DNA of 64,000 nt from Desulfobacterales bacterium (GCA_018335195.1 JAGXKN010000013.1:1941-65940); one strand, 5' to 3'; shown: positions 13,182 to 62,094, counted from the stretch's first letter. Translations and numbers: made by a program. Notes: generated by a model not told the origin, from the sequence alone.

Positions 13182-13655
13182 GGCGCCTCCATATACGATG
13201 TTATGATTTCAATGCAAAAAATCCTTCGGCAGGCCAAAAACCAAGGAGCCGTCAGCAAAACCCTTCAGCTGCACGGGCTGCCGATGGGCAAACAGAATCG
13301 AAAGGATGACAATTGCCGCCGGGGGCGTCCGGCAACAAACGATCATTGCCGGAGCCAAAGCGCCAAAATATAAAAACACCCTTTTGTCTCTTTACCATAA
13401 AATCGCCAAAAAAGTACAGGCCTGGGGAAGGGTCAAGGTCTGTTTACGAAAACTCTTGACAGCTTTTTGTTGTCCCAAGTAAATATAAAGAAGATAAAGC
13501 CAAACTATTCGCAAGAATAGGACGGAAAGTCACGGATCTTGTGTTTATTAGAGACAGCCGGACTGCCAGTTCACACACGATGGCGGTCCGACTGTTTTTT
13601 GGGGGGGAGAAGCGGAATTCAGGTTACAAGGCCCCGTTTTGAAAGTGAACAAATC

Positions 13656-25532: not shown

Positions 25533-28500
25533 ATGACTTCACTAAAGCGCTTGACATTTGAACAAACCCCGATCTATGTGCTGTCCGACCGGCCGGAATG
25601 GTTTGTGCCCGATCCGGCCGGAGACAGGCTCCTTTCAAACAGGCAAGCCAAGCCCGAAAACAGCCGGGAGCCAATGGAAGACATTCGGCACCAGCAGTTT
25701 TTCTCCCTCCTGCCGACCGCGGATCAACAGTCATACACCGGCCGCAGCGACTACCTGGAACTCGAGGGCCTCGAGGAATGCTGGCTGCACATCACGGATC
25801 AATGCAACCTTAGCTGCCGGCACTGCCTGTTTTCCTGCTCCGGTCAAACGCGAACCGCCCTGTCCCTGGCATCCGTTGAGCATGTCTTCGACCAGGCCTG
25901 CAGCCTCGGTGCGCGCGTGTTTTACCTCACCGGCGGAGAACCTATGATGCACCCGGATTTCAGGCAAATCTGCAGCCGCATCTTAACCGCCCGGACTGAT
26001 ACGCACCTGGTCATACTGACCAACGGATTGCTGCTGCCGCAGTTCATGGATCTTTTTAAAACCCTTCCCCAACAGCGCCTGCACCTGCAGATCAGCATCG
26101 ACGGCCGGGAAAAGGCACATGATGGACTCCGGGGGGCCGGTACATTCCAAAAACTGATGAAGGCAATGGAGCCCCTGGCCGATCTTGACACCCAAAAAAC
26201 CCTGGCCATGGCTGTTCATAGCGGCAATGCCGGGCAGATGGCCGACATCGTGGAGCTGGCCGCAAGGCATCGCATCTCCAGGGTACACTACCTCTGGCTC
26301 ATGATCACGGGCAACGCCGCACCCAATTCCTTTGTGCCGCCGCACCAATTGTTTGACGAACTGATCCGGGCCTGCATAGTAGCTGAGCAACGCGGGGTCA
26401 CGGTCGACAACATGGAAAACATGGCAAACCAGGTTTTTTCCGCGCCCGGAACCAAGCATGACCTTGGCAATGCCGGCTGGACATCCCTGGCGGTAGGCCC
26501 GGACGGAAATGTGTATCCCACCCCGGCGCTGATCGGCCAAATGCAGACCCGGTGCGGGCACATCTCGGAAGGCATGGAAAATCTCTGGAAAAACAGTGCG
26601 GCCTTAAAGGACCTTCGCCGGAGTTCTCTTATCCAGAGTCCGGCATATGCGGACAACCCCCTGAAATTCATCGTGGGCGGCGGCGACATTGACCACAGCT
26701 TTTACGCAGGCGGAGAACTTATCGGGCAGGATCCGTATTTGCCGCTATATAACCTCATGGCGCTCTGGCTGATCCACCGGGCAGTCCGGCAAAGCTTATC
26801 AACCAGGGGCCCGCGGATCCTGCTGAGAATGGGCGACCAGCTTCGGCAGTGCCATCAGGACGGCCGGGGCGTGTCTCTGACACACTCGAACTGCGTGCTC
26901 ACGTTTGCCGACACCAAGCGGATGGTGGGCGATTTTTACAACAATGCGGCGCAAAACCTGAACACGGATATTTCCAATCCGGTTTGCTACCCGGAGGACA
27001 CCATGGCGCATATCCCCGAAGCTTCCCGGATCCGCTCCTACGGCTGCGGCAGTCCCGTTCTCGACGCCGCCCCGGCCGCGGACCAGACCGTGGTGGACCT
27101 GGGTGCGGGCGCCGGCCTGGAATGCTTTATCGCGGCCCGACAGGTCGGGAAAAACGGGTGCGTCATCGGAATCGACATGCTCGATGAAATGATTTGCCGG
27201 GCCGAGCAGTCCGCCGAAGCCGTTGCGCAAAATCTGGGTTACAGAAACGTACGCTTTGAAAAGGGCTTTCTCGAAGAAATCCCCCTTGCAGATCAAACCG
27301 CGGACTTGGTCATCTCCAACTGTGTGATCAATCTTTCCGAAGACAAACGCAAAACGTTTTCCGAGATAATGCGGGTTTTAAAACCCGGGGGCCGGATCGT
27401 GATTTCGGACGTGGTCACGGATGCGCAGATGACGCCGGAAATCGCAAACGATGAAAAACTTCGCGGCGAATGCATCGCCGGTGCCATGCGCCAGGAGTAT
27501 CTTGTGGCCATGCTCGAGGACGCAGGATTCGGCCGGATTCAAATCCTGAAGCGCTTTTTTTACCGAAAAGTCCAGAATCACGCCTTTTATTCGCTGACCT
27601 ACAGCGCCCGCAGACCCGGGGCCGCAGAAAGCCGCCGGGTCATCTACCCGGGCCCCTATACCGCGGCGCTCACCGACAGCGGAGAAGTGCTGCTCCGGGG
27701 TCGGCCGTACACCGTGGCCTGGCCATGGGCCGCTCATGAAGATACTTCCGTGCTGGTACTCGACGAGCAGGGCAATGCCGAAAACCTTTCTTCGGAAAAC
27801 ACCTGCACCTGTTACACGCCGCCGGAAAATACCCGCTACCCGGCTCCGGATCTTCAGATCAAATCCGCTCCGCCCGCCGCCCTGTATCCGCACGGCGGCG
27901 AACTGCCCCACCCGGTGGACTGCATGCAGTGCGGAAAACCACTGATATACCTGAACCGGGAAGAACCCCGGGCTTGCGCGTTCTGTGGAGATACCGGCCG
28001 GGCCAACGCCGTCTGCGAGGCCGGCCATTTTGTCTGCGATGCATGCCACACCCGGGATGCGGGCGGAATCGTCAGCCAGGTCTGCAAACACACGAATCAG
28101 GCAGAGATGATCCCGCTGCTTGACACCATTCGCAGCCACCCGGCTTTTGCCGTTCACGGCCCTGAGCATCATTTTGCCGTGCCCGCCGTAATCGTGGCCG
28201 CTTTTGGCAACATGGGCGGAAACATCTCGGATGAAGACATTCAAACCGCCATGGATCGCGGCCGGTCGGTTCCGGGCGGGGTCTGCGCCTTCTGGGGCGC
28301 CTGCGGCGCGGCCGTGGGCGTGGGCATCGGATTCGGCGTGATTCTGCAGAGCAACCCCTTAAAGCCCGATCCGCGCCAGATGGTCCAGAAGGCGGTGGGC
28401 GCAATAATCGGTGAAATCGCGGAAACCAGGGCTGCCCGGTGCTGCCGGCGCGAATCCTATACGTCACTGATCCATGCGGCCCGGTGGTCCGGACACATCC

Positions 28501-28628
28501 TGCCGATCGCCCTGGAAGCCGGTGGAATCCCGGAATGCAGGCAGCAAACAGCCAACCGGGAATGCATCCGGCAGGCCTGCCCTTACGTCGGGGCGACCCG
28601 GCGATCCCTTGCCGTGAAAATGCAATAG
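25533..28628 (+). CDS. tri-domain fusion: radical SAM (SPASM-like, auxiliary Cys missing) + ArsM-type SAM methyltransferase + DUF5714-like Cys-rich domain
   Basis: CX3CX2C at 25803-25826 (CNLSCRHC). MT motifs are VVDLGAGAG, ISNCVINLSEDK and RVLKPGGRIVISDV, plus YGCG and GEC cysteines. The C-terminal region reads CMQCG..CAFCG..CEAGHFVCDACH..HGPEHH..PGGVCAFWGACGA..RCCRRES. Confidence 0.8.
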   Translation: MTSLKRLTFEQTPIYVLSDRPEWFVPDPAGDRLLSNRQAKPENSREPMEDIRHQQFFSLLPTADQQSYTGRSDYLELEGLEECWLHITDQCNLSCRHCLFSCSGQTRTALSLASVEHVFDQACSLGARVFYLTGGEPMMHPDFRQICSRILTARTDTHLVILTNGLLLPQFMDLFKTLPQQRLHLQISIDGREKAHDGLRGAGTFQKLMKAMEPLADLDTQKTLAMAVHSGNAGQMADIVELAARHRISRVHYLWLMITGNAAPNSFVPPHQLFDELIRACIVAEQRGVTVDNMENMANQVFSAPGTKHDLGNAGWTSLAVGPDGNVYPTPALIGQMQTRCGHISEGMENLWKNSAALKDLRRSSLIQSPAYADNPLKFIVGGGDIDHSFYAGGELIGQDPYLPLYNLMALWLIHRAVRQSLSTRGPRILLRMGDQLRQCHQDGRGVSLTHSNCVLTFADTKRMVGDFYNNAAQNLNTDISNPVCYPEDTMAHIPEASRIRSYGCGSPVLDAAPAADQTVVDLGAGAGLECFIAARQVGKNGCVIGIDMLDEMICRAEQSAEAVAQNLGYRNVRFEKGFLEEIPLADQTADLVISNCVINLSEDKRKTFSEIMRVLKPGGRIVISDVVTDAQMTPEIANDEKLRGECIAGAMRQEYLVAMLEDAGFGRIQILKRFFYRKVQNHAFYSLTYSARRPGAAESRRVIYPGPYTAALTDSGEVLLRGRPYTVAWPWAAHEDTSVLVLDEQGNAENLSSENTCTCYTPPENTRYPAPDLQIKSAPPAALYPHGGELPHPVDCMQCGKPLIYLNREEPRACAFCGDTGRANAVCEAGHFVCDACHTRDAGGIVSQVCKHTNQAEMIPLLDTIRSHPAFAVHGPEHHFAVPAVIVAAFGNMGGNISDEDIQTAMDRGRSVPGGVCAFWGACGAAVGVGIGFGVILQSNPLKPDPRQMVQKAVGAIIGEIAETRAARCCRRESYTSLIHAARWSGHILPIALEAGGIPECRQQTANRECIRQACPYVGATRRSLAVKMQ

Positions 28629-37273: not shown

Positions 37274-37477
37274 ATGTCCGATCGCGTCATTATTTACGGA
37301 AAAGCGGGTTGACCCTACACGGAAAAAGCTCGTGAAGCTTACAAGGATCACACCTATGTCAACGTCAAAAGTGACAGGGAAAAACTTGACGAAATGCTAA
37401 AACTCTCCGATGGTCGACGCAAGGTGCCGGTCATTGTGAACGGGGATTCTGTCACGGTTGGCTACGGCGGCTCCTGA
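37274..37477 (+). CDS. glutaredoxin-like selenoprotein candidate (in-frame UGA at 37310-37312)
   Basis: AAGGAGG lies 6 nt before the ATG. Translation is MSDRVIIYGKAG-U-PYTEKAREAY...RRKVPVIVNGDSVTVGYGGS. The UGA sits where the first Cys of Grx CPYC lies, and a hairpin lies 13 nt downstream. Confidence 0.7.
37326..37340 (+). promoter_or_regulatory. candidate bacterial SECIS hairpin for the Grx-like gene
   Basis: AAGCU-CGUGA-AGCUU, a 5-bp stem with a G/U-containing loop, starting 13 nt after the UGA. The stem is weak and AU-rich. Confidence 0.4.
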
Positions 37478-39734: not shown

Positions 39735-39811
39735 CGGGGCGTAGCGCAGTCTGGAAGCGCACTTGCATGGGGTGCAAGGTGTCGCAGGTTCAAATCCTGC
39801 CGCCCCGACCA
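39735..39811 (+). tRNA. tRNA-Pro (anticodon GGG)
   Basis: Manual cloverleaf. The acceptor CGGGGCG pairs with CGCCCCG and the D-stem is GCGC/GCGC. The anticodon stem is CTTGC/GCAAG with loop AUGGGGU. The T-arm is GCAGG-TTCAAAT-CCTGC, with discriminator A and an encoded CCA. Confidence 0.9.
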
Positions 39812-40352: not shown

Positions 40353-40793
40353 TCAAAAATCCGGCCGAAAAAACCGGGTGAGATAAAACACGTAAAATCC
40401 GGCAAAAAGACCCTGGGCGGTTCCCCACGCGATATCCACCACGGATATAAACGCCGGGTAGCCTTTAACAAAGGACAGGTTGGTCAGATCATAGGTGCAG
40501 TAAAGGGCAAACCCGGCAAACGCACCCGTGCAAACGGCTGCAGCAAGGCGGTTTTCCACCATGATCGCCAGAGAAACAAACACCGCAAGGCCCAGAGCGA
40601 TGATTGCCTGGGCCAGGATCCCCACCTGCAAGTTAAACACGATCCGCCCGTTTTCAACGGATGCCAGATAGCTCAACTGCCTGAAATAAAGGTGCCGGGC
40701 AACAACGGCCAGCCACAGCATGTCAAGCACGATAAAAATAAAAATCGATATCCCGGCGACCTTGAAAAACGCGGCGGAAAAAAAATAGTGCAT
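40353..40793 (-). CDS. DUF2177 family membrane protein
   Basis: A 146-aa, 4-TM protein. The family call rests on sequence gestalt and on its usual neighbourhood with CFA-synthase/DUF1365/DUF1295 genes. Confidence 0.55.
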   Translation of the reverse strand: MHYFFSAAFFKVAGISIFIFIVLDMLWLAVVARHLYFRQLSYLASVENGRIVFNLQVGILAQAIIALGLAVFVSLAIMVENRLAAAVCTGAFAGFALYCTYDLTNLSFVKGYPAFISVVDIAWGTAQGLFAGFYVFYLTRFFRPDF

Positions 40794-40918
40794 TATTGGA
40801 CTCCTTTTTTTTCATAGATAATCATCACGCCATGATTATCTTAAATTAAGCCCAGCATAGACATCATGCAAAACGATTTTCCTTGTTTCTTTGAACACCT
40901 ATTCGAAAAGGACGGCAG

Positions 40919-41491
40919 GTGAAAACAAGACACCGGGTCTGGATTGTTGGCCTGCTGGCATGGCTCCTGATACCGGTTCAGGCAGCCGGTGCTGGCGAAA
41001 ATGCGTTTGCCGAACAAAAAAACATTGATGGCTATACGCTGACCTTACGCGGCACAGGCGTATTGCGCTACATGGTCTTTATTAAGGCTTACCAGGGCGC
41101 ATTTTATCTGCACCAGGACAAAACGGCAAACCAGGCCCTGGATGAGCGGGCGGCCCGCTGCCTAGTGCTTCATTATTTTCAGCCCATCAAGGCCGCCGAC
41201 TTTGCCGAGGCCACCACGGAAATGATCAAGAAGAACGTATCACCGGGTCGCTTTGCATCCCTTTTGCCAAAAATCGAAAAATTCAACACCTTTTACCGCG
41301 ACATCACTCCCGGAGACCGTTATACGGCCGCATACATCCCCGAAAACGGAACCCGCCTCTGGCTGAACGACGATTTGCTGGGCATGGTGGAAGGCGCTGA
41401 ATTTGCTTCGGGGTTTTTTGCCATCTGGATCGGCAAAAATCCGATAGACAGGAACTTCCGGGATCACATGCTGGGAAAGCACCGGCCGTGA
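40919..41491 (+). CDS. chalcone isomerase-like family protein (secreted)
   Basis: GTG start, a signal peptide, and LTLRGTGVLRYMVFIKAYQGAFYL typical of the bacterial Chalcone_3 family. Confidence 0.6.
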   Translation: MKTRHRVWIVGLLAWLLIPVQAAGAGENAFAEQKNIDGYTLTLRGTGVLRYMVFIKAYQGAFYLHQDKTANQALDERAARCLVLHYFQPIKAADFAEATTEMIKKNVSPGRFASLLPKIEKFNTFYRDITPGDRYTAAYIPENGTRLWLNDDLLGMVEGAEFASGFFAIWIGKNPIDRNFRDHMLGKHRP

Positions 41492-42900
41492 GAAAGCTTT
41501 CCACCGCATCAAAGGCGGCCTATTCCGCCCCGGCGTTTGCACTGGCAGTAGTTGGGATTCCCGTATACGTCTACATTCCGAAATTTTACACCGATGTGGT
41601 GGGGGTTCACATCTCCGCTCTGGGCGCCATTCTTTTGATCGTCCGGCTGTTTGACGCGTTTACCGACCCGGTGATCGGCATTTTCTCAGACCGGTTGAAC
41701 ACGCCCATGGGCCGGCGGCGGCCGCTTATCGCCGCGGGCGGCGTGCTTACGGTTTTTGCCATCGCGCTTTTGTTCAACCCGCCCGGGGCAATGGGCGCCC
41801 ATTCGGCCGGGCTGTATTTCATGGCCCTGATATTTGCCTTGTTCTTATTCTGGACAGTGGTCATTGTCCCGTATGAATCCCTGGGACCGGAGCTGACCTT
41901 TGACTATAACGAACGCACCGCCCTGTTTTCCACGCGCGACGGTGCGCTGATTGCAGGCACCGTTATTGCCGCTGCAATGCCGGGGGCAGTCCGGTGGGCC
42001 GCAGGGCTGGACAGCAGCCCGGCCGGTGAACGGCAAACCTTTTTTATCCTGTCTCTGATTTATATTCCTTTGATCCTGGGAGCCTGCACATGGTGCGTGG
42101 CGGCTTTCCGGGAGCGGCCCCGGGCGGCCGTGCGTTCAGATCTACGGATTGTTGCATGGATCCGTGCAAGCCTGGCAAACCGGCCCTTTCGGATTCTTTT
42201 GATCGCATACACCATCAGCGCCATCGGCAACAACCTGCCGGCAACACTGATTCTGTATTACGTGGAGTACGTGCTTGGCTCCCCCAGGGCGGATTTGTTC
42301 CTTGCCCTGTATTTCGTTACAGGCATTGTTTTTCTGCCCATGTGGGTGTACCTGGCCCGCCGGACCGGTAAAAAGGCTGCCTGGATCGCTTCCATGGCGA
42401 TTAACACCGGGGCGTTTTTCTGGGTTTTCTTTCTGGGCGCCGGCGATGAAACTTTATACGGGATTCTGGTTTTTCTCTCCGGCATCGGTTTCGGGGCCAC
42501 GCTTGCCATTCCCTCTGCCATCCAGGCCGACGTGATCGACTATGACGAGCTGCTCGCCGGAGAGCGGCGGGAGGGGCTGTATATCAGCCTTTGGTCGATT
42601 GCCAAAAAACTGGCGGCTGCCGCAGGCGTCGGTTTTGGCCTGGCCCTGCTCGGGGGTTCCGGGTACCGGCCGGGAGTCGTTCAATCCGATTCCGTGGTTT
42701 TAACCTTGCGCGTTCTCTATGCGCTGGTTCCCTGCCTGTGCAATGCGCTTGCCATTGTAATTGCCCTTTACTACCCTATCAGCGGGGAGATTCACAGGCA
42801 AATCCGGGGGGCCATCGGCGAGCGGGCCGCAGGACGGGCGGTGGAGGATCCGCTGGTTCCCGGACGCATCATTGGCCAGGCAGGGGCAGGCCGGGGATAA
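41488..42900 (+). CDS. MFS transporter (GPH/glycoside-pentoside-hexuronide-like)
   Basis: About 12 TM helices, with LIVRLFDAFTDPVIGIFSDR and GRRRP motifs typical of GPH symporters. It has a 4-nt overlap with the upstream gene. Confidence 0.75.
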   Translation: MRKLSTASKAAYSAPAFALAVVGIPVYVYIPKFYTDVVGVHISALGAILLIVRLFDAFTDPVIGIFSDRLNTPMGRRRPLIAAGGVLTVFAIALLFNPPGAMGAHSAGLYFMALIFALFLFWTVVIVPYESLGPELTFDYNERTALFSTRDGALIAGTVIAAAMPGAVRWAAGLDSSPAGERQTFFILSLIYIPLILGACTWCVAAFRERPRAAVRSDLRIVAWIRASLANRPFRILLIAYTISAIGNNLPATLILYYVEYVLGSPRADLFLALYFVTGIVFLPMWVYLARRTGKKAAWIASMAINTGAFFWVFFLGAGDETLYGILVFLSGIGFGATLAIPSAIQADVIDYDELLAGERREGLYISLWSIAKKLAAAAGVGFGLALLGGSGYRPGVVQSDSVVLTLRVLYALVPCLCNALAIVIALYYPISGEIHRQIRGAIGERAAGRAVEDPLVPGRIIGQAGAGRG

Positions 42901-42927
42901 ACTGCCAACCAACAGGAAGTTGTTGTT

Positions 42928-43740
42928 ATGGAGATCGTGATTTTATTTGCCGTGAATCTGGCAGCAGTTGCCGGGTTTATGACTGTCGGCTGGGTGATCA
43001 GCCTGATGCGCAGAAATGCCGCCATTGCCGATGCCCTTTGGGGGCTGGGTTTTGTACTCGTTGCCTGGCTGACGTTTTTTCAGGCAGACGGGTTTTTCCA
43101 GCGCAAACTCATGCTCGCCCTGCTGGTGACCATCTGGGGCATGCGCCTGTTTGTCCATATCGCCACGCGCAGCCTTGGTAAAGGCGAAGATCCGCGATAT
43201 GCCGCCTGGCGGGCGCAATACGGGCAAAGGTTCTGGCTGGTGAGCCTCTACAGGGTGTTTCTGGTGCAGGCGCTCTTCCTGTGGGTCATTGCCATCGGCG
43301 TGCAGTACGGCCAGATTGCCGCACAGCCCGCCCGCCTGACATGGCTGGATGCGGCGGGTTTGTTGATCTGGCTTGCCGGCTTGGTCATTGAGGCTGTGGC
43401 CGATTACCAGCTGCGGCGCTTTCTGGCCGCCCCGGAAAACCGGGGCCGTGTGATGGATCAGGGCCTCTGGCGTTACAGCCGGCACCCCAACTATTTCGGC
43501 GAAACCCTGGTCTGGTGGGGCATTTTTGTTATCGTGCTGTCTGCATCCCGGGGATTTTTGACCATTGTCAGTCCGCTGGTAATTACGTACACGTTGCTGC
43601 GGCTGACCGGTGTATCTCTCATGGAAGAAACCGAGTTTTCCGAAAACCCGGAATACCAAGCATACATCAGGCGGACAAACGCGTTTGTGCCCTGGTTCCC
43701 AAGGACTCGCCAAGAAAAAGGAGCCGATCATGACAAATGA
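42928..43740 (+). CDS. DUF1295 (steroid 5-alpha-reductase-like) membrane protein
   Basis: The C-terminal block YSRHPNYFGETLVWWG is characteristic. Confidence 0.75.
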   Translation: MEIVILFAVNLAAVAGFMTVGWVISLMRRNAAIADALWGLGFVLVAWLTFFQADGFFQRKLMLALLVTIWGMRLFVHIATRSLGKGEDPRYAAWRAQYGQRFWLVSLYRVFLVQALFLWVIAIGVQYGQIAAQPARLTWLDAAGLLIWLAGLVIEAVADYQLRRFLAAPENRGRVMDQGLWRYSRHPNYFGETLVWWGIFVIVLSASRGFLTIVSPLVITYTLLRLTGVSLMEETEFSENPEYQAYIRRTNAFVPWFPRTRQEKGADHDK

Positions 43741-44992
43741 ATCCAGCCTGGATATTGCAGTGGCGGGCGGCGGGGTGGCCGGGATTGTTGCCGCATATTT
43801 GCTCAGCCGGCGCCACCGGGTGACCCTGTACGAAAAAAACAACTACGTGGGCGGCCACACCCACACGATCGAAGTCGATGAAGGCAACGGATTTCCTGCA
43901 TATGTGGATACGGGATTCATTGTTTTCAACGACCGCACATACCCGAATTTTATTCGTTTTATCGAGCAGCTGGGCGTCTCCCGGTTAAAAAGCGCCATGT
44001 CGTTTACTTACTGGGACCCCAACATCGGGTTCACCTACAACACCACGCGCCCCTTTGCAGACAAAAAGAACCTGCTGCGCCCGTCTTTCTGGCGCCTGCT
44101 TTTTGAAATCAACCGGTTTAACAAAACGACCCGGCGGTGGCTTGCAGAAAAACGTCTGGCAGACATGACCCTTAATCAATATCTGCGGCTGGCCGGATTT
44201 TCCGCGGCATTGGCCAGGCATTACGTCACTCCCGTGAGTGCCGCCATATGGTCCACCGGCGAGCGGGATATAATGGATTTTCCGGCGCAAACCTTTGCCC
44301 GGTTCTTTGAGAACCACGGTCTGCTGTCTTTTTCCGGCCATCCCCAATGGTATACGATCCAGGGAGGCAGCCATGCCTACGTCAAGGCGTTTTTAAAAAC
44401 ATTTCCGGGCACGGTGCATACCGGCCGGCCGGTCCGGAAAATCGCCCGTGAAAACGGGCGGGTGCGGCTGTGGACCGATGAGGCAGAAGCCACCCATGAC
44501 AAGGTGGTCATTGCCGCCCACGCAGACGAGGCGCTGGCAATGCTGGCAGATCCTTCCGATTCCGAGGCAAGTCTGCTTTCGGCTTGGCAATATGCCCAAA
44601 ACCGGGTCATCCTCCACCGGGACACCAGCTGCCTTCCACCCCTGCAGGGGACCTGGGGCTCATGGAATTACAGGCAGGGCCCAGAAAAGGCCGTCCGCGG
44701 CCCCGCAACCCTGACCTATTACATGAACCGGCTCCAGCAGCTGTCCTCAGCCAACCACTATTGCGTCACCCTGAACCCGGATCATCCCATAGGGCCGGGG
44801 CAGATTATCGCGGATCTCAATTATGCGCATCCCACGTTTGACAAAGGCGCTGCGGAGACCCAGCCGGATCTGCCGCAGTTAAACGGCATAAACAACACCT
44901 GGTTTTGCGGCAGTTATTTTCGTTACGGCTTTCACGAAGACGCGGTAATGTCGGCTGCAGCCGTGGGGCGGGATTTCGGAGTTGAACTATGA
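43730..44992 (+). CDS. FAD-dependent oxidoreductase (amine-oxidase/desaturase-like)
   Basis: The start MTNESSLDIAVAGGGVAGIVAAYLL at 43730 overlaps the DUF1295 stop by 11 nt. The GxGxxG dinucleotide fold is followed by YEKNNYVGGHT. Confidence 0.8.
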   Translation: MTNESSLDIAVAGGGVAGIVAAYLLSRRHRVTLYEKNNYVGGHTHTIEVDEGNGFPAYVDTGFIVFNDRTYPNFIRFIEQLGVSRLKSAMSFTYWDPNIGFTYNTTRPFADKKNLLRPSFWRLLFEINRFNKTTRRWLAEKRLADMTLNQYLRLAGFSAALARHYVTPVSAAIWSTGERDIMDFPAQTFARFFENHGLLSFSGHPQWYTIQGGSHAYVKAFLKTFPGTVHTGRPVRKIARENGRVRLWTDEAEATHDKVVIAAHADEALAMLADPSDSEASLLSAWQYAQNRVILHRDTSCLPPLQGTWGSWNYRQGPEKAVRGPATLTYYMNRLQQLSSANHYCVTLNPDHPIGPGQIIADLNYAHPTFDKGAAETQPDLPQLNGINNTWFCGSYFRYGFHEDAVMSAAAVGRDFGVEL

Positions 44993-45765
44993 ACTCAAAA
45001 ATTTTTACAGGCGCTGTGGAACATACCCGGCACCTGCCGGTGTATCATCATTTTCAGTACCCGGTCTACATGTACGGCTTTGACATCGACGAATTGTCCG
45101 TACTAGATAAAAAACTGCCGCTCTTCGGATACAACCGGCTGAGGCCCACATCCATCAATGATGCCGATTACCTGGAGAAACGGCCGGGCGAGATAAAGGA
45201 AAAACTTCTGGATCTGCTGCCCGAAACCGACAGGACGCAGGTGGCATCTGTCATGCTGATCACCGCTGCGCGGTACTTTCACTACGTGTTTAACCCGGTT
45301 TGCTTCTATTACTGTTTTGACCGCCGGGGCGATGTGATACGGCTGATTGCGGAAGTCAGCAACACTTACGGAGAGCGGCACGTGTATTTACCAGAGCCCC
45401 TGCCCGAAGGAACTTCTGAAACAGAAATCCGACAATACAAAGCTGAAAAGGCATTTCACGTATCTCCTTTCAACAATATGGCCGGCCGCTATGATTTTTT
45501 CTGCAGCCCGCCGGGAGAGACCATAGACGTTGGGATCAACCTGGTCCGGGAGGGGAGAAAAATCTTTGAGGCGCGTTTGCAGGCAAGGGGCAGGGAGTTG
45601 ACAAGGGCGGCCCATCTCGGGGTTTTGCTGCGCCATCCGGTCGTGCCGCATCTCACCATGCCCCGGATTATTTATGAAGCTATGCGCCTGTATTATCGAA
45701 AGCACATGCCGTGGCACGACAAGCCAGCCCCGTCGGATCCCATGACCATCCGGTATAAACGATGA
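44989..45765 (+). CDS. DUF1365 family protein
   Basis: GAVEHTRHLPVYHHFQYPVYMYGFDIDEL matches the DUF1365 N-terminal signature. It has a 4-nt overlap with the upstream gene. Confidence 0.75.
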   Translation: MNSKIFTGAVEHTRHLPVYHHFQYPVYMYGFDIDELSVLDKKLPLFGYNRLRPTSINDADYLEKRPGEIKEKLLDLLPETDRTQVASVMLITAARYFHYVFNPVCFYYCFDRRGDVIRLIAEVSNTYGERHVYLPEPLPEGTSETEIRQYKAEKAFHVSPFNNMAGRYDFFCSPPGETIDVGINLVREGRKIFEARLQARGRELTRAAHLGVLLRHPVVPHLTMPRIIYEAMRLYYRKHMPWHDKPAPSDPMTIRYKR

Positions 45766-45786
45766 ATGAATCTTTGAGACCCATCC

Positions 45787-47115
45787 CTATGCCTCATAAA
45801 GAAAACCCCTGTCCATGGGGTAATCCGTGGTGTTTCCCCGGGAAAACGTAATCTGGTAAAGCCGCAGGACGGAATTCCGGGTCCGAAAAAACTCGGCGCA
45901 GAAATAAAGATAAGCTCGCCAGGTCCGCCGGAAGCGCTCATCAAACAACTCCGGGTTGAAGCTGTTGATCATCGACCAGTTTGCATCAAAGCTTGCGGCC
46001 CACTGATCCAGAGTCAGGGCGTAGTGACGGCGAAGGTTTTCAATATCGAGTATCTCAAGGCCATAGACCGCCATCAAATCAATGGTCTCGGTGAGGCCGG
46101 GCAGATATCCGCCGGGAAAAATATGTTTCCGGATGAAAAAGTCGGTTTCCATGGGACGGTCATGGGCGATGAAATGAAGCAGGCCGATTCCCCCGGGTTT
46201 CAGGCATCGAGCCATGGACCGGATCCAGTCCTCCAACTGCCTTTTGCCCGCATGTTCGTAAACCCCCAGGGATGCATACTTGTCAAAGGTGCCCGACACC
46301 TGCCGGAAATCATTTTCCTGGACGCGAATTTTTTCCGCGATGCCTTCCTGCCGGGCCTTATCCAGCAACCACCGATTCTGATCGCTCGTAGGGCTCAAGT
46401 TGGTGCCCACAGCACCGTAGTGTTTGACGGCGTGAAAAAGCAGGGAGCCCCAGCCGCCGCCCACGTCGATTAAGTGCTCGCCCGGCTTGAGCCGCAATTT
46501 CCGGCAGACATGATCGAGCTTGTTTTCCTGGGCCTCCCGCAGGCTTTGGGTGCCTTCTTTCCAGTAGGCGCAGGTATAGGTCATGGTGGGATCCAGGTAC
46601 TGCCAGAAGATATCCGATCCGCGGTTGTAGTGGGCCAGGGCATTTTTTACGCCCCTGCTGCTTTTCCGGTTGCCGTACAGCAACTCCTGCCACAGATTGC
46701 GAATTCGGATGAGGGGATTGGGGATGCGCGTCTTTCGGGCGGCTTCGGCCAGGGGCAGCTCATTGTCAGCTGCTGCGCGTATCAGGGCTTTCAAATCCCC
46801 CTCAATATCCACGCTGCCGGTAATGTAAGATTCGATCAATCCCCATCCCGTAAACAGCATGGAGTTGAACTGGGCTTTTTTTGTTTTGTACCGTATGATA
46901 AAGGCCGCCGGCTCGCTGCCATGCGCATAACAGGTGCCGTCGGCAAAAATCACTTTAAAGGGAATCGACGATTTCCCCAAAAACCCAATATACATTGCTT
47001 GCAACAGCCCGGCCATGTTTTTCCTTTCCCGGGGCAAGGTCGATTCGTTCCGGCCAACTTTGCCGGACTTGCATTCGTATGGAAATATTCTCGGCAAGGC
47101 TTCGGATATGTGCAC
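45787..47115 (-). CDS. cyclopropane-fatty-acyl-phospholipid synthase family methyltransferase
   Basis: HYNRGSDIFWQYLDPTMTYTCAYW and LIDVGGGWGSL motifs. An alternative start is MAGLLQAMY at 47016. Confidence 0.85.
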   Translation of the reverse strand: MHISEALPRIFPYECKSGKVGRNESTLPRERKNMAGLLQAMYIGFLGKSSIPFKVIFADGTCYAHGSEPAAFIIRYKTKKAQFNSMLFTGWGLIESYITGSVDIEGDLKALIRAAADNELPLAEAARKTRIPNPLIRIRNLWQELLYGNRKSSRGVKNALAHYNRGSDIFWQYLDPTMTYTCAYWKEGTQSLREAQENKLDHVCRKLRLKPGEHLIDVGGGWGSLLFHAVKHYGAVGTNLSPTSDQNRWLLDKARQEGIAEKIRVQENDFRQVSGTFDKYASLGVYEHAGKRQLEDWIRSMARCLKPGGIGLLHFIAHDRPMETDFFIRKHIFPGGYLPGLTETIDLMAVYGLEILDIENLRRHYALTLDQWAASFDANWSMINSFNPELFDERFRRTWRAYLYFCAEFFRTRNSVLRLYQITFSRGNTTDYPMDRGFLYEA

Positions 47116-48179: not shown

Positions 48180-49022
48180 TCAGCGCTTGTAACGGGACGC
48201 GGGCACAAGCAGCATCCACCCGAGCTTCAGCCACTTGGGGTCCCGGTAATTGGCAAGCCCGATTTTCATGGCAGTATGCCCGGCAGCCGGCTGGTCGCGA
48301 TATGTCCCAAACAACCGGTCCCACCATGAAAGATTGAATCCATAGTTGCTGTCGGTTTCCCGGATGCGCACCGAGTGATGAACCCGGTGCATGTCCGGAG
48401 TCACGATAAAACGCCGGATCCAGCGATCAACCCGGAAATTCATGGATATGTTGCTGTGGTTAAACATCGAGGTGCCGTTGAGCAGGACCTCAAAGGCCAC
48501 CACCGACCACGCAGGGGGGCCCAGGGCGGCAACGGCGCCCATTTTAATCGCCATGGAAAGAATGATTTCAACCGGATGGAACCTTGCGCCCGTGGTGACG
48601 TCAATATCAAGATCCGTATGATGCATCCGGTGAAGACGCCAAAAGACCGGAACCTTGTGAAAAACCACATGCTGGAAATAAACGGTCAGGTCAAGGATGA
48701 CAATCGCGGCAAGCCCGCCGACCCATGCCGGCAGAGATATCGCATGAAACAAACCCCATCCCTTTTCATCCGCGATCAGGGCCGTTCCCACGGCAGCAGC
48801 CGGAAACACGAGCCTGAGCAAAAAAGCGTTAACAGATGTCAGCACCAGATTATTGGCCCACCGGGTCAATTTGCTTTGCTGCAGAAACCGCCTGGGGGCC
48901 GCGGCTTCCCAGGCGGCCATGGCAAAAAAGACCCCCAGAAAAAATCCGAGCCGGACAAACATTTCATTGCCGATAAGAAGCGCATTCACGGTGTTACTCT
49001 CTCCCTGTCTGCCTTTTGACAA
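48180..49022 (-). CDS. sterol desaturase / fatty acid hydroxylase superfamily membrane protein
   Basis: Di-iron His boxes HVVFH, HRMHH and HRVHH, with a multi-TM N-terminal half. Confidence 0.8.
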   Translation of the reverse strand: MSKGRQGESNTVNALLIGNEMFVRLGFFLGVFFAMAAWEAAAPRRFLQQSKLTRWANNLVLTSVNAFLLRLVFPAAAVGTALIADEKGWGLFHAISLPAWVGGLAAIVILDLTVYFQHVVFHKVPVFWRLHRMHHTDLDIDVTTGARFHPVEIILSMAIKMGAVAALGPPAWSVVAFEVLLNGTSMFNHSNISMNFRVDRWIRRFIVTPDMHRVHHSVRIRETDSNYGFNLSWWDRLFGTYRDQPAAGHTAMKIGLANYRDPKWLKLGWMLLVPASRYKR

Positions 49023-49049: not shown

Positions 49050-49742
49050 ATGATGAAAACACTTGATGAATCCAAATGCCTCATAGTTTTTGTCAAGGCC
49101 CCGGTCCGGGGCACAGTGAAGACCCGGCTGGCCGAAGACCTGGGGGATTCCGGTGCTGTTCGGCTATACAGGGCTCTTGTGGAAGATCTCCTGGCCACTA
49201 TATACCGTATGAACATAAATCTGCGCATTTTTTATCATCCCGGCAAACACGAAGCGTTAATGCGCAAGTGGCTCGGGGCAGACGCGCCGCTGTTTGTACA
49301 GCAGGGCGCCGACCTGGGCCAGCGCATGCATCACGCACTCGGCTGCACTGCAGCCGAAGGATTCCGCAGTGTCGTTTTAATCGGCTCAGACATACCCGGT
49401 CTCAATGACCAAATCATTAACAATGCCTTTTCCCTCCTGGGAGCATATCCGGCGGTAATCGGTCCTGCCGTGGACGGGGGATACTACCTGATCGGCTTCA
49501 GGGCCGGCTGTATTTTCATGGGAGCCTTCACCGGCATTGACTGGGGAACGCCGAATGTCCTGGAAAAAACGCTTCAGCGGTTCCGGCAAAAAGGCAAAGA
49601 AACCCCCCTGTTACCGTCCCTCAGGGATATCGACACCCGGGCGGACCTGCAGGCCTTTGCCGCAGGCCTGTCAGATGGCGCCGCCCGCTCTTCCCGGCTT
49701 CAACACATGCGGGCGGTACTTGGGGAAATGAAGATGATCTGA
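49050..49742 (+). CDS. DUF2064 / TIGR04282-type glycosyltransferase-like protein
   Basis: CLIVFVKAPVRGTVKTRLAEDLGDSGAVRLYRALVEDLL is the DUF2064 N-terminal signature. Confidence 0.7.
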   Translation: MMKTLDESKCLIVFVKAPVRGTVKTRLAEDLGDSGAVRLYRALVEDLLATIYRMNINLRIFYHPGKHEALMRKWLGADAPLFVQQGADLGQRMHHALGCTAAEGFRSVVLIGSDIPGLNDQIINNAFSLLGAYPAVIGPAVDGGYYLIGFRAGCIFMGAFTGIDWGTPNVLEKTLQRFRQKGKETPLLPSLRDIDTRADLQAFAAGLSDGAARSSRLQHMRAVLGEMKMI

Positions 49743-49768
49743 ACCCGAGGGAAATTTCTTTCGGAAAA

Positions 49769-50488
49769 ATGCGGAACACAAAACCCATGAACATGGATCT
49801 TTCTCCGGCGGTTTCCGTTATCGTACCGGTTTTACATGAAACCGCGGTCATTGAGCAGACCTGCGCGCATCTGCTGGCCGCGTGCGGCGGAAGGAATGCA
49901 GAGATCATCATTGTTGACGGCGATCCCCGCGGCTCGACCATAAATCGCGTGGATTCCCAACAGATCCGAACCCTGACGGCATCCCGCGGGCGCGCCGCAC
50001 AGATGAATGCCGGCGCAAGCGCCGCCAGGGGACGCTTGCTGCTGTTTGTTCACGCCGATACCCGTCTTCCAGAAAGCGCGGTCCGGGATGTGCTCGAAAT
50101 TTGCCGCAGGCCTTCAATTGCAGGAGGCGCCTTTTTACTCAGCATAGACAGTAAAAAAGGCTTTTTCCGGGCAGCCCAGGCCTGGGCCAATCTTCGCTGC
50201 CGCCTGACCCGGATACCCTACGGGGATCAGGCCGTGTTTATGAAAAAACGAATCTTCCGGGCTTTTGGCGGCTATGCCGATATTCCGCTCATGGAAGATA
50301 TCGATCTCATGCAGCGGCTGAAACGAAACGGATTTAAAATCGCGCTGATCCGGAAACCCGTTCAGACCTCGGCCCGGCGCTGGGAAAAAGAGGGCCGGAT
50401 TTACGGCATGATCCGCAACAACCTGCTTTCGTGCCTGTATTATGCAGGCGTCAAACCCGCCTTGCTGAAAAAGTTTTACAAAACTTAG
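49769..50488 (+). CDS. family 2 glycosyltransferase (TIGR04283-type partner of DUF2064)
   Basis: VSVIVPVLHE...AEIIIVDGDPRGST...FVHADTRLP (GT2 DxD-type core). It sits immediately after the DUF2064 gene, as in the known pair. Confidence 0.7.
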   Translation: MRNTKPMNMDLSPAVSVIVPVLHETAVIEQTCAHLLAACGGRNAEIIIVDGDPRGSTINRVDSQQIRTLTASRGRAAQMNAGASAARGRLLLFVHADTRLPESAVRDVLEICRRPSIAGGAFLLSIDSKKGFFRAAQAWANLRCRLTRIPYGDQAVFMKKRIFRAFGGYADIPLMEDIDLMQRLKRNGFKIALIRKPVQTSARRWEKEGRIYGMIRNNLLSCLYYAGVKPALLKKFYKT

Positions 50489-50729
50489 ACCCGTCTTCAT
50501 TTTTTCATCCGGATCGCAAAAACAAGCGGAATAAACCCGGCTGCCGGCGTATGAGTGCGGCTACAACTCCCGTCCAAACGGTTTGGTGGCTGGCCCCCCG
50601 GCCCGCTCGCTGATATACGGGCCCCGAGTTTTTCCAGTTGGCCATTCGCCGGTGATGGGCCAGAAGCATTTCCTGTGCTGCATTTAAAGCCATGACTGTT
50701 ATCCTTGTATTTTTTCGGTCAGATTCATT

Positions 50730-51494
50730 TTATTCAGCGGCTTTCATCACGATATCGCCATAATAGGAAACCGTTGACTCACCGGTATTGTCCGAATCGG
50801 TCATGATGGCAATTGCCCGGATCATGGGCGGATCTTCTTCTCCAAAGGCTTTTCTGTAGTCCGCTAAAATATTGCGGGACTCGGAAACCCAGGTATCTGT
50901 CTTTTCCTTTCCGGTTTCCACCACGATCATGCTCACCCGGTCTGTGAATGCGCTTGACACGATTTTGCCTTCCGGTGCATTGCTGGCCCATATGTAGGTA
51001 AGTGCCCCTGTGGGCGGGTATTCTCCGTGAAGCATCCTGGCTGCCTTGAATTTCGCACGTTCGAAAAACCCGACCTTGTCCGGATCGTATTCAAAAGCGA
51101 TATAAACGCGAGCCGGGTAGTCGTCCCCGGATTTTTGGGTGACATCGCCTTTTTCGTAGACGCCGGTTGCCCGCCAGCGCCATTGGATTACCGGATATTT
51201 CCGGGGGTCGATGCGCACCTTGCGGATTAAACCGGATGCAGATGCATCACTTTCCGCGCGTATAACCGCAGTGCCCTTGTCATCGACCAGGCGATAGTCT
51301 GTATGCGCGTCAATTTTTTCAAATGTCAGCGGCTCCCAGTCCGATGGTATCCCGTCAGCGGGATCCGCATCAGAAAACTTGCCCACATGAAGGACTCGGT
51401 TGTTTTCTGCCGCGGCATCGGCGCCGGCGACAACTGACGTGAGAACAGAAAATAATACAAACAGCGAAATCATCGCAATGCGAGTTCGGGTCAT
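50730..51494 (-). CDS. DUF3047 domain-containing secreted protein
   Basis: The chosen start is MTRTRIAMISLFVLF (signal peptide); an alternative start is at 51560. The block PVIQWRWRATGVYEKGDVTQKSGDDYPARVYIAF is DUF3047-like. Confidence 0.65.
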   Translation of the reverse strand: MTRTRIAMISLFVLFSVLTSVVAGADAAAENNRVLHVGKFSDADPADGIPSDWEPLTFEKIDAHTDYRLVDDKGTAVIRAESDASASGLIRKVRIDPRKYPVIQWRWRATGVYEKGDVTQKSGDDYPARVYIAFEYDPDKVGFFERAKFKAARMLHGEYPPTGALTYIWASNAPEGKIVSSAFTDRVSMIVVETGKEKTDTWVSESRNILADYRKAFGEEDPPMIRAIAIMTDSDNTGESTVSYYGDIVMKAAE

Positions 51495-51571
51495 CGGGGG
51501 TCCCTTGCCCGAACTTCCGCCGCCGGAAAACTCAAATGCGGTTGTTCTGCTTTTTTCCATAAAAGCCGCCT

Positions 51572-51856
51572 TTAATCGTTCCTGCCCACGCGAACCGCAC
51601 ATCCGATCACGTCGGTGTCTTCTGTCTGCCAATGCAGACATGATCGCCGCGAGATTGCCCGCGGGGAAAAATCGGCCCTGCTGTTTAGCCGGAATGGGAC
51701 CGCTGAGACGGCAAACTCCCGGGTGAAGACCTGGTCGTAATTCAAAGAAAGCGCATCCGGGTCCCTGGCGGCCAGAGTTCCGACCGGTTCTCGGTTGTGT
51801 TCGACAACAGCCGATTCCAAGGCATGCCAGGCCTTAGGGTAAAAACGCGAGTTCAT
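51572..51856 (-). pseudogene. N-terminal remnant of a GH100 (neutral invertase-like) glycoside hydrolase
   Basis: From M at 51856, KAWHALESAVVEHNREPVGTLAARDPDALSLNYDQVFTREFAVSAVPF matches the conserved GH100 N-terminal block. Similarity is lost after about 60 aa. Confidence 0.45.
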
Positions 51857-52512: not shown

Positions 52513-52529
52513 ATACAGTTACGTAATTG
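52513..52529 (-). promoter_or_regulatory. second copy (inverted) of the CAATTACGTAACTGTAT operator-like motif
   Basis: ATACAGTTACGTAATTG is the reverse complement of the motif at 51906-51922. It lies between merR and the flavoprotein gene. Confidence 0.45.
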
Positions 52530-52610
52530 TTTAAATCGGCGGACGCGGTTTTAAAAGATGCCGCCCAAAAAAGTGCCAAAACAAGCAGAAGCGGGAACAA
52601 AGGAGGACAA

Positions 52611-53267
52611 ATGAAAATTTTAGGCGTTTCCGGCTCCCCGATTAAAAACAGCAACACGGACAGGGCCGTAAAAACCGTGCTGGAAGCCACGGGCGCAGAA
52701 ACCGAGTTCATTAAACTCAGTGAATTTCAAATCGAGCCCTGCCGTGCCTGCTTGGGATGCGTGGATACAAATCAATGCGTTATCGGAGATGACCGCAATA
52801 TGCTGGCTGAAAAAGCAAAACAGGCAGATGGCCTCGTGGTTGGCGGATATACCCCTTATTCAAGCATTGACGGCCGGACCAAGGCGTTTCTCGAAAGACT
52901 GTATCCGCTTCGGCACAAGCATGGATTCATGAGCGGTAAATCCGGGGTTGCCGTGGTGACATGTGCGATCCCGGAAGACTGTTAAGGCATGCCCCCGGCC
53001 TGCGAAAGCGGTGCCAACAGCATCTTCTATTTCATGATGGAAGAAGGCATGAATTTTCTGGGATCCGTAAAAATCCGGGGAAACATCCCCTGCATCCGTT
53101 GCGGCTACGGAGACGAGTGCCAGATGGCCGGCGTCAAAATGATTTTCGGCCCGGAAGCCACCCTGGATACGGTGGGCATCAACAAATTTGAAACCCAGGC
53201 GGAGACCGAAAAAGCCGCCAGAGATCTCGGCACCGGGTTGGCAGCGGCTTTAACGAAGCAAGGCTGA
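52611..53267 (+). pseudogene. iron-sulfur flavoprotein (Isf / NADPH-dependent FMN reductase family) with an in-frame TAA at 52983-52985
   Basis: MKILGVSGSPIKNSNTDR..., and the compact CX2CX2CX5C motif EPCRACLGCVDTNQC. Track ORFs 52527..52985 and 52989..53267 share one frame and are separated by a single TAA. Confidence 0.6.
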
Positions 53268-53387: not shown

Positions 53388-53663
53388 ATGGACAAACCGT
53401 TTGTGGTCCTGGACTCCCAGACCCGGCAGGAAATGCAGCAATTGCTGCTGCAACTGTGGGAGCGCTTTTCCCATACTGTGGTGTTTGTCACCCATAATTT
53501 CCGGGAAGCGGTCACCTTTGCCGACCGGGTGGCCATCATGGACAAAAACCCGGGACGGGTAAAAGAAGTGATTGATATCGAGCTGGAAAGACCCCGGGAT
53601 CCGGGTGGAAACCTTTTTCACAAGCAATGTGTCCAATTCGATGACCTGCTGCGCAGCACCTGA
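53388..53663 (+). pseudogene. C-terminal fragment of an ABC transporter ATPase (SsuB/TauB-like)
   Basis: It starts at the Walker-B remnant MDKPF (normally LLMDEPF), followed by the D-loop/H-loop region VVFVTHNFREA. Walker A and the signature motif are absent, and there is a stop just upstream in frame. Confidence 0.6.
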
Positions 53664-53746: not shown

Positions 53747-54682
53747 ATGAACAAAATGATTAGATATATACTCGCAATATCGATAATTTTGGCATGTCCC
53801 TGGCAGGTTGCGGCCGAGTGGGACTTTTCCAGGCACAGCATCCCCCCTTCGGATATTATTTCCGGCGGACCGCCGCGCGACGGCATTCCCGCCTTGTTTG
53901 ATCCGGAATACGCGGACGCCGATCAGGCTGTATCCATGAAAGAAGACGAAATGGTGATGGGTGTTTTTATCAACGACATCGCCCGCGCTTATCCCCTTCG
54001 AATCCTTTCAATGCATGAACTGGTCAATGAACACTACGGAGATAAGCCGGTGCTGGTGACTTGGTGACCGCTTGCCTATGCCGGAGTGGTCTACTCCCGT
54101 AATGTCGAAGACAGGGAACTTACCTTTGGTGTTTCAGGATTGGTGTATAAAAATAATCTGCTGATGTATGACCACCAGACAGAATCGTTGTGGCTCCAGG
54201 TCAAAAACGCCGCAGTCACAGGCCCCATGACCGGATCCACCCTGACCGTTCTGCCCTCCACTTTAACTACATGGAAGAAATGGCGAAAGGCCCATCCCGA
54301 CACTGTGGTTTTGTCTGAAAACACCGGATACAACCGCGACTACAGCCGTGACCCGTATGCAGATTATTATGAAAGTCGCAGAAGCATTTTCGGTTTTGCC
54401 CGCCGCATACTGCAGGGGCATGAAGCAAAGGGGCTTGTGGCCGGCATTCAACTCGAAGACAGCAGCATGGCCTACCCCATGGATATGCTGCGGGAAAGAC
54501 AAAAAATCGTCGAACGGATTGACGGCAAAACCGTCACCCTGGCGCTGAATCCGGAAACCAATCGGCTGTCTATAAAAGATGATACAGGTGCAGACATCCC
54601 GTTTATTATAACATACTGGTTTGTATGGAAAAACATTCATTCACAATCCGGGCGCTACAAAGCAGATACAAGCGCTCCCTGA
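53747..54682 (+). CDS. DUF3179 protein with an in-frame TGA (54065-54067) at the conserved CPLC cysteine; selenoprotein candidate or pseudogene
   Basis: Track ORFs 53747..54067 and 54086..54682 are in one frame. Read-through gives ...DGIPAL...ARAYPLRIL..HELVN..PVLVTW-U-PLAYAGVVYSR..LTFGVSGLVYKNNLLMYDHQTESLW. A signal peptide is present. Confidence 0.6.
54083..54097 (+). promoter_or_regulatory. candidate bacterial SECIS hairpin for the DUF3179 gene
   Basis: GGAGU-GGUCU-ACUCC starts 15 nt after the UGA. As I recall, the GGUCU loop is the same pentamer as the E. coli fdhF SECIS loop. A lower stem 54078-80/54098-100 is possible with a CC bulge. Confidence 0.45.
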
Positions 54683-62039: not shown

Positions 62040-62094
62040 GCAGAATATAACAGCGGTGCGCCGCCCTGACAGCCCGTCAAGCACTGGAGGCAAT

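Follow-up and report, generated by a model that had tools for sequence, protein, structure and literature searches.

What does an in-frame TGA mean when it falls on an invariant cysteine of a protein family? The question is raised by a gene at 53747-54682 on the plus strand of a 64,000-nucleotide stretch of Desulfobacterales DNA (GCA_018335195.1, JAGXKN010000013.1:1941-65940), hereafter the window. We put a probability of roughly 0.9 on the reading that this is one functional gene of the known selenocysteine (Sec)-containing branch of the DUF3179 family (PF11376), in which the UGA would be decoded as Sec by means of a downstream hairpin. The evidence is comparative: TGA is paired with Cys codons at the same column, a conserved and covarying hairpin follows the TGA, the surrounding codons bear the marks of translation through it, and TGA is a normal stop elsewhere in the window.

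Two open reading frames (ORFs), 53747-54067 and 54086-54682, share a single frame, and the TGA at 54065-54067 is the sole in-frame interruption of 53747-54682 (+). The parts of the gene are as follows, with plus-signed positions counted from the U of the UGA.

53747-54682 (+): DUF3179 gene, complete, probably encoding a selenoprotein precursor; 311 codons plus stop, with Sec as residue 107
53747-53815 (+): predicted signal peptide of the Sec (secretory) type, residues 1-23, MNKMIRYILAISIILACPWQVAA, with cleavage before EW, read from the sequence
54065-54067 (+): in-frame UGA, read as Sec107, giving U-P-L-A at the family's C-P-L-x motif (C107 is invariant in alignments A1 and A3)
54081-54099 (+): hairpin of the Sec insertion sequence (SECIS) type, with a 7-bp helix (+17..+23 with +29..+35) and the loop GGUCU at 54088-54092
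54680-54682 (+): true stop of the gene, also TGA; no SECIS-type hairpin is required after it

A first-pass annotation, made from the sequence alone, had described two ORFs in one frame with only this TGA between them, a full-length DUF3179 protein with a signal peptide on read-through, and a UGA exactly at a conserved Cys of the family. All of this held when checked. The read-through product is 311 amino acids long and matches the Pfam model over residues 44-274 (E-value 3.3e-76, 257 bits against a cut-off of 27), and the peptide around the interruption, VLVTW-[UGA]-PLAYAGVVYSR, places the TGA in line with the invariant Cys of the DUF3179 C-P-L motif. A signal peptide, read by eye, is probably present: the N-terminus is of the typical kind, and those of the homologues in the alignment are equivalent in being hydrophobic and are followed by a conserved WDFS(R/K)HS. 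In the AlphaFold2 (AF2) model of P0002, a Cys-containing homologue that is 55% identical to the window protein, an N-terminal helix spans residues 2-17.

The protein keeps 38 of the 38 invariant columns of a 48-sequence alignment (A3), with Sec at the Cys column, and the retained residues take in H-E-x-V-N, C-P-L, F-G-x-S-G, Y-D, S-L-W-x-Q, R-x-Y, P-Y and A-Y-P. H90, E91, N94, Y141, D142, R197, Y199 and K228 belong to the invariant set. The gene is most likely intact. In GenBank it is split into two coding sequences (CDSs) of a Desulfobacterales metagenome-assembled genome (MAG), MBS3755320.1 (103 amino acids) and MBS3755321.1 (198 amino acids), both named ‘DUF3179 domain-containing protein’ and carrying no selenoprotein annotation; NCBIfam holds no DUF3179 or selenoprotein model for the window protein.

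A search of 5.8 billion proteins returned more than 3,000 DUF3179 relatives. At 40-55% identity the relatives are complete proteins that read W/F/Y-C-P-L at the site. Every one of the nearest relatives (59-65% identity) is a C-terminal fragment of 185-198 amino acids, and their starts are called inconsistently, a pattern typical of gene callers that halt at a common TGA. On the contigs of three of these fragments, an N-terminal DUF3179 ORF lies in the same frame and is joined to the fragment through a TGA at the identical column, the joint reading LVSW-TGA-PL(A/S)FAGVVYSR.

Scanning a single genome for each GTDB species, together with JGI metagenomes, yielded 160 further loci. TGA stands at the invariant Cys column in 25 of the 80 genome loci and in 38 of the 81 metagenome sites, and every other site has TGC or TGT; with duplicates removed, the set holds 63 Sec-form and 95 Cys-form core proteins. 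The first-pass annotation had proposed aligning homologues in search of TGA/Cys pairs at this column together with a conserved downstream hairpin: the pairs recur and, as described below, the hairpin is conserved, in agreement with its suggestion that the UGA encodes Sec by way of a SECIS-like element. Among the carriers of the TGA form are Desulfuromonadales, Geoalkalibacter and the isolate Geothermobacter hydrogeniphilus HR-1; Desulfobacterales, Desulfobulbaceae, Desulfarculaceae and Syntrophobacteria; Methylomirabilota, Binatia and one Kiloniellaceae MAG; and a Delta 3 symbiont associated with Olavius algarvensis (locus L059), which has a UxxT form. A neighbour-joining tree groups the Sec forms into what is essentially a single deep clade, and three changes between Sec and Cys suffice to explain their distribution. 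The TGA of the window gene, being common to this deep clade, is thus inherited and no recent lesion. On each of two metagenome contigs, L105 (4017 and 6239) and L106 (1643 and 3871), a pair of Sec-form DUF3179 paralogues is separated by about 2.2 kb, and both members of either pair have the TGA and the hairpin.

The codons beyond the TGA behave as protein-coding sequence. Codon 108 is Pro, in four synonymous codons, and codon 109 is Leu, in five, throughout the 66 distinct Sec-form sequences. Conservation over the 60 residues upstream of the site is 52% in Sec forms and 48% in Cys forms, and over the 185 residues downstream it is 43% in both. Exclusively synonymous change after the TGA between conserved flanks is, as far as alignments can tell, the signature of translation through the TGA under purifying selection.

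Sec and Cys forms differ in a second position of the motif. The first-pass annotation had given the family motif as (T/Y)CPLC, which fits the Cys forms (CxxC in 94, CxxA in one) but does not fit the clade of the window protein, where U-P-L-A lacks the second Cys. Across the 63 Sec forms the fourth residue is Thr in 34 (UxxT), Ala in 20 (UxxA), Ser in 8 (UxxS) and Cys in one (UxxC), so that 62 of 63 read U-x-x-A/S/T. For the sole U-P-L-C form found, L149 10250, a position inside the CxxC part of the tree points to a separate change from Cys to Sec.

Fifteen nucleotides past the TGA, GGAGU-GGUCU-ACUCC at 54083-54097 forms the core of the hairpin, as the first-pass annotation had noticed; that annotation had also identified the loop pentamer with that of the Escherichia coli fdhF SECIS, correctly, and had considered a bulged lower stem possible. 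A lower stem does exist, with up to three more pairs that extend the structure to 54079-54101, and the supposed bulge is a 1x1 C/C mismatch. By itself, the hairpin of the window gene is only mildly unusual (30-nt stretch at -8.4 kcal/mol, z -2.16). One sequence could not decide the matter; judged from the aligned Sec forms, comparison lifts the hairpin far beyond chance.

The Sec forms are free of insertions and deletions in this region and were aligned in register from the TGA (alignment A2). By consensus, columns 17-23 pair with columns 29-35 (7 bp) around a five-nucleotide loop, N-G-U-N-U. Among 29 Sec-form sequences, 85.8% of cells are paired, compared with 79.2% in column shuffles (0 of 500 reach the observed value) and 29-56% in slid-partner controls, and the covariation score is 0.238 against 0.128 in shuffles (again 0 of 500). 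Pair 21-31 occurs as AU (15), CG (8) and GU (5), and pair 22-30 as GC (26) and AU (2). Some compensatory changes even alter the amino acid, as when GGA...UCC (Gly...Ser) becomes GGC...GCC (Gly...Ala). Loop residues G25 and U26 are invariant in all 66 distinct Sec forms and U28 is kept in 65, with the caveat that G25-U26 also begin a Val codon. Within the clade, CGUGU is a more frequent loop than GGUCU and indeed the most frequent of all.

The hairpin is a property of the TGA forms. Of the 66 Sec forms, 54 have at least six of the seven stem pairs, as do 4 of the 95 Cys forms, and the mean folding energy of positions +13..+42 is -10.7 kcal/mol in Sec forms and -5.9 kcal/mol in Cys forms. Eight sequences of Methylomirabilota type score only 4 of 7 pairs; as we read them, a bulged A would shift the pairing register and leave an equivalent stem. 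The helix is built from the codons of G-V-V-Y-S-R, which explains why this peptide is almost fixed in the Sec forms and not in the Cys forms. One Cys form with C-P-L-A (L089 424, of the P0002 type) lies inside the Sec clade and retains 6 of the 7 SECIS pairs; its hairpin looks like a relic SECIS left by a recent Sec-to-Cys change.

As a reference, we verified a 46-nt E. coli fdhF SECIS sequence, which matches fdhF at 100% in 5,419 genomes. That element is likewise a hairpin directly 3' of the UGA and within the coding region. The pentamer GGUCU is identical in the two, at +22..+26 in fdhF and at +24..+28 in the window gene, and the conserved G-U stands at +23/+24 and +25/+26, respectively. The window stem is the shorter one, with seven base pairs including a mismatch, and the conserved bulged U of fdhF is without counterpart in it. 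SelB-dependent bacterial SECIS elements begin some 11-20 nt past the UGA, a range into which the window hairpin falls.

On this basis we propose that the UGA at 54065-54067 is recoded as Sec during translation, with the short hairpin that starts 14-16 nt downstream as the signal. In the N-G-U-N-U loop of the hairpin, G25 and U26 would be presented at a spacing close to that of G23 and U24 in fdhF. By analogy, SelB carrying GTP and Sec-tRNA(Sec) would bind the loop and deliver Sec to the ribosome. The resulting 311-residue precursor would be sent across the cytoplasmic membrane by its signal peptide, with Sec107 in place of the invariant Cys, presumably as the reactive or ligand-binding residue and possibly in a redox or metalloid-related role, and with Ala instead of the second Cys of C-P-L-C.

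Any recoding must be local and signal-dependent, since TGA is the normal stop elsewhere in the window. It ends 18 of the 36 Pfam-supported window genes that were checked, the DUF3179 gene included, and is the commonest genuine stop, which rules out a global reassignment of UGA. The organism probably has the Sec machinery, and indirect support for its decoding Sec comes from a second gene on the same contig, which the first-pass annotation had rightly listed as a further UGA-containing gene starting at 37274.

37274-37477 (+): glutaredoxin (Grx)-like selenoprotein gene, 67 amino acids, with TGA at 37310-37312 (G-U-P-Y-T); member of NF041114

Its product matches the NCBIfam model NF041114, ‘UXX-star selenoprotein family 1’, with 105.4 bits against a cut-off of 72. 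The downstream hairpin of this gene, AAGCU-CGUGA-AGCUU, is thermodynamically indistinct (z 0.1), and the Sec status of the gene therefore follows from family membership only. A mechanical search for other window ORFs in which a hairpin follows an interrupting TGA listed 218 candidates and was too noisy to use.

Several observations weigh against the Sec reading and have to be set beside this evidence. The window protein departs from the consensus at 4 of 57 columns conserved in at least 90% of sequences, where the family as a whole has a median of 1 such departure and a 90th percentile of 4. Each of the four is conservative, and there is a small residual probability that this copy lost its function recently or came under relaxed selection very recently. 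In the hairpin, pair 18/34 is a C/C mismatch, and the structure folds at -8.4 kcal/mol against a clade mean of -10.7; within its 71-nt context it is thermodynamically ordinary (z -0.36). The mismatch arises because the Ala codon is GCC rather than GCG, and the same C/C occurs at this pair in 13 of the 66 Sec forms, so the window copy lies within normal variation. No Rfam family matches the hairpin, either in the window at the gathering threshold or around the site at E-values up to 10; the only hit there is a chance snoRNA (E-value 2.4), and Rfam is uninformative for this hairpin. The 36 annotated genes of the 64-kb window include no selA, selB, selD or tRNA-Sec gene, the only tRNA found by ARAGORN being a tRNA-Pro at 39735-39811. 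Finally, the DUF3179 gene adjoins genes that are truly decayed.

52527-53267 (+): FMN_red-type (iron-sulfur flavoprotein-like) pseudogene, interrupted by TAA at 52983-52985, directly upstream of the DUF3179 gene
53388-53663 (+): C-terminal remnant of an ATP-binding cassette (ABC) transporter ATPase, a 91-residue ORF (…FVTHNFREAVTFADRVAIM…); gene debris

These neighbours lend some colour to the alternative that best survives, namely that the gene is a pseudogene broken by plain nonsense. A single substitution turns TGC into TGA, and the hairpin mismatch and the four departures could be signs of decay in this copy. The TGA, however, is common to 63 distinct homologues that span about 40% identity and many phyla, which marks it as inherited and not fresh; both halves of the gene are open and conserved, the codons past the TGA change synonymously only, the hairpin is specific to TGA forms, and the true pseudogene next door is broken by TAA, not TGA. 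The first-pass annotation had warned of a tract rich in decayed genes and of a TGC-to-TGA nonsense mutation; the former is real, the latter is contradicted by a TGA that is ancestral to a deep clade, and the decay of the neighbours has no bearing on the TGA. We regard plain nonsense as highly improbable and, as far as sequence comparison goes, already largely refuted.

Slightly less probable again is a genuinely split gene, giving two polypeptides that perhaps associate, one of 103-106 amino acids ending at W106 and one of 198 amino acids from the GTG at 54086. GenBank and all gene callers do give two CDSs, and this GTG lies 19 nt past the TGA; the corresponding starts in homologues, however, are inconsistent (MVYSR, MVQDQ, MTGEK, MLTFG, MYSRN). 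The stretch from the TGA to the start, P-L-x-x-x-G-V, is conserved as protein with synonymous variation and aligns with unsplit Cys forms, and is hence translated in frame with the N-terminal half, and the break would fall inside the invariant C-P-L motif. Least probable of all is read-through free of selenium, by near-cognate insertion of Trp or Cys or through a local non-Sec recoding signal: hairpins after stop codons do promote read-through in other systems and the Sec machinery is not seen in the window, but the site is the invariant Cys of the family in a classic Sec/Cys pair, the hairpin agrees in loop sequence and spacing with the fdhF element that SelB binds, the taxa with TGA forms are described as selenoprotein-rich (PMC13188914), and the contig also carries a bona fide member of a selenoprotein family.

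If the UGA of this gene encodes Sec, it does so in a family already on record. The first-pass annotation had raised the possibility of a new selenoprotein family, which fails because DUF3179 has been on a published selenoprotein list since 2007. It is listed as pfam11376, UxxC/T, with MBW1804167.1 as the example (PMC9312934, 2022) and as PF11376, UxxC/T, one Sec, with MDJ0986319.1 (PMC13188914, 2026); both papers credit the metagenome study of the Olavius symbionts by Zhang and Gladyshev (2007, NAR 35:4952; PMC1976440), in which DUF3179 is probably the ‘OS_HP1’ of Table 2, as mapped by elimination. Desulfobacterota, Methylomirabilota and the Olavius symbiont are described as selenoprotein-rich (PMC13188914). 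The published proteins and the window protein are alike in Pfam family, in carrying a single Sec, which opens the C-P-L-x motif, in their Cys homologues and SECIS-like hairpin past the UGA, and in a source taxon of Desulfobacterota type. They differ in the fourth motif residue: Ala, found in the U-P-L-A of the window protein, is absent from the published descriptor UxxC/T. Since this residue is Ala in 20 and Ser in 8 of the 63 Sec forms, it is the descriptor that is incomplete and not the window gene that is aberrant. With its minor variant of the motif, the gene joins a selenoprotein family that was known before.

A similar replacement is seen in other selenoproteins. In the Grx-like UXX-star family NF041114 and the peroxiredoxin (Prx)-like UxxS family (PMC13188914), Sec likewise takes the place of the first Cys of a CxxC-type motif, and in such UxxT/UxxS families related to thiol oxidoreductases the second Cys is likewise changed to Thr, Ser or Ala. 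Unlike them, DUF3179 has no thioredoxin fold, is about 300 residues long and is predicted to be exported. The AF2 model of P0002 is mostly beta (predicted local distance difference test score (pLDDT) 89.2, predicted template modelling score (pTM) 0.85). A Foldseek search of this model against the PDB found no significant match (best E-value 0.2, template modelling score below 0.2), a sequence-profile search of the PDB found none at E-values up to 1, and the predicted fold gives no functional clue.

No function has been assigned to the DUF3179 family in the literature searched, and we turned to gene neighbourhoods. Neighbour families were ranked without bias over 164 DUF3179 loci from many phyla, a sample that is skewed to relatives of the window protein and whose counts carry no phylogenetic correction. 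Redox and arsenic-related genes dominate the ranking. The commonest neighbour, at 25 loci, is a DedA/VTT (TVP38-type) membrane protein fused to or beside a MerA-like flavoprotein disulfide reductase. AhpD/CMD-like genes follow at 16 loci (median distance 425 bp), extracytoplasmic function (ECF) sigma factors at 11 and ArsM-like methyltransferases at 9-11, the last having arsenite methyltransferases as best matches at scores below curated cut-offs. Genes for the arsenosugar radical S-adenosylmethionine (SAM) (seleno)protein ArsS occur at 6-9 loci and were confirmed with TIGR04167 at two of them (L018, 421 bits; L031, 411 bits; cut-off 300). DUF3047, DUF547 and TIGR04283 arsenosugar glycosyltransferases also recur. 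Control seeds for ABC ATPases, the major facilitator superfamily (MFS), GGDEF proteins and zinc-dependent alcohol dehydrogenases match 0-2 loci, and a short-chain dehydrogenase/reductase (SDR) seed matches 6. An example of the commonest neighbour is L029:41-2185 (-), and a related flavoprotein disulfide reductase lies in the window itself at 62056-63561. An assignment of the AhpD/CMD-like neighbours to the ‘arsenosugar-associated peroxidase’ of TIGR04169 type was rejected, as they match only the generic TIGR01926, below its cut-off.

The window gene has a comparable setting, in which two glycosyltransferase genes lie 3-5 kb upstream of the DUF3179 gene, with DUF3047 and a metal-type MerR regulator in between.

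49050-49742: TIGR04282 arsenosugar biosynthesis glycosyltransferase, above the NCBIfam cut-off
49769-50488: TIGR04283 arsenosugar biosynthesis glycosyltransferase, above the NCBIfam cut-off

The tract of TIGR04282, TIGR04283 and DUF3047 spans 49050-51641, and a fatty-acid hydroxylase gene lies just upstream of it at 48180-49022. At locus L001, a TIGR04283 gene is immediately upstream of DUF3179, and the order of fatty-acid hydroxylase, TIGR04283 and DUF3179 is that of the window. No strictly conserved operon partner was found among the loci; synteny is clade-specific, for instance in Nitrospinaceae, and the associations are statistical. Our literature search found nothing that ties DUF3179 to arsenic, nor anything on the context of DUF3047, DUF547 or TIGR0428x. 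That DUF3179 is an exported Cys/Sec protein of an arsenic or thiol-stress module is a tentative idea, to which we give low odds, and the neighbourhood association is a lead rather than a demonstration.

Elsewhere, the window holds the following features.

13490-13571 (+): c-di-GMP-I-GGC riboswitch aptamer (RF03167), 65.7 bits against a gathering threshold of 59
25533-28628 (+): gene for a 1031-residue fusion of radical SAM, arsenite-methyltransferase-like and DUF5714 domains, followed by an EamA transporter gene
34681-36072 (-): IS110-family transposase, in the stretch of lowest GC content (0.47-0.49 against about 0.55)
40353-47115: cluster of DUF2177, chalcone-isomerase-like, MFS_2, DUF1295, amine oxidase, DUF1365 and cyclopropane-fatty-acid-synthase genes

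In its C-terminal domain the fusion protein resembles the ‘metal-binding double selenoprotein MbdU’ model, with a score short of the cut-off. The transposase lies close to the Grx-like selenoprotein gene and to the tRNA-Pro at 39735-39811, and the cluster at 40353-47115 is one that we take to resemble a widespread stress cluster associated with cyclopropane-fatty-acid synthase.

For the family, these results go beyond the published one-line descriptions in three respects: the UxxA/S motif variants, the split annotation and a predicted fold without a match in the PDB. UxxA and UxxS account for 28 of the 63 sampled Sec forms, and the published UxxC/T thus under-describes the family. As NCBIfam has no model to catch them, the same mis-annotation as split CDSs probably affects dozens of these genes in public MAGs. 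The 66 in-register SECIS hairpins laid over a fixed G-V-V-Y-S-R provide a clean case of an RNA signal that constrains protein sequence. The recurrent arsenic/redox neighbourhood, in turn, offers a testable lead to the function of a widespread domain that is predicted to be exported. If that lead is true, a trivalent arsenical or a related thiol-reactive species would be bound or transformed outside the cytoplasm by residue 107, be it Sec or Cys, and the systematic loss of the second Cys in the Sec forms would mean that a single selenol had taken over from a dithiol in the mechanism.

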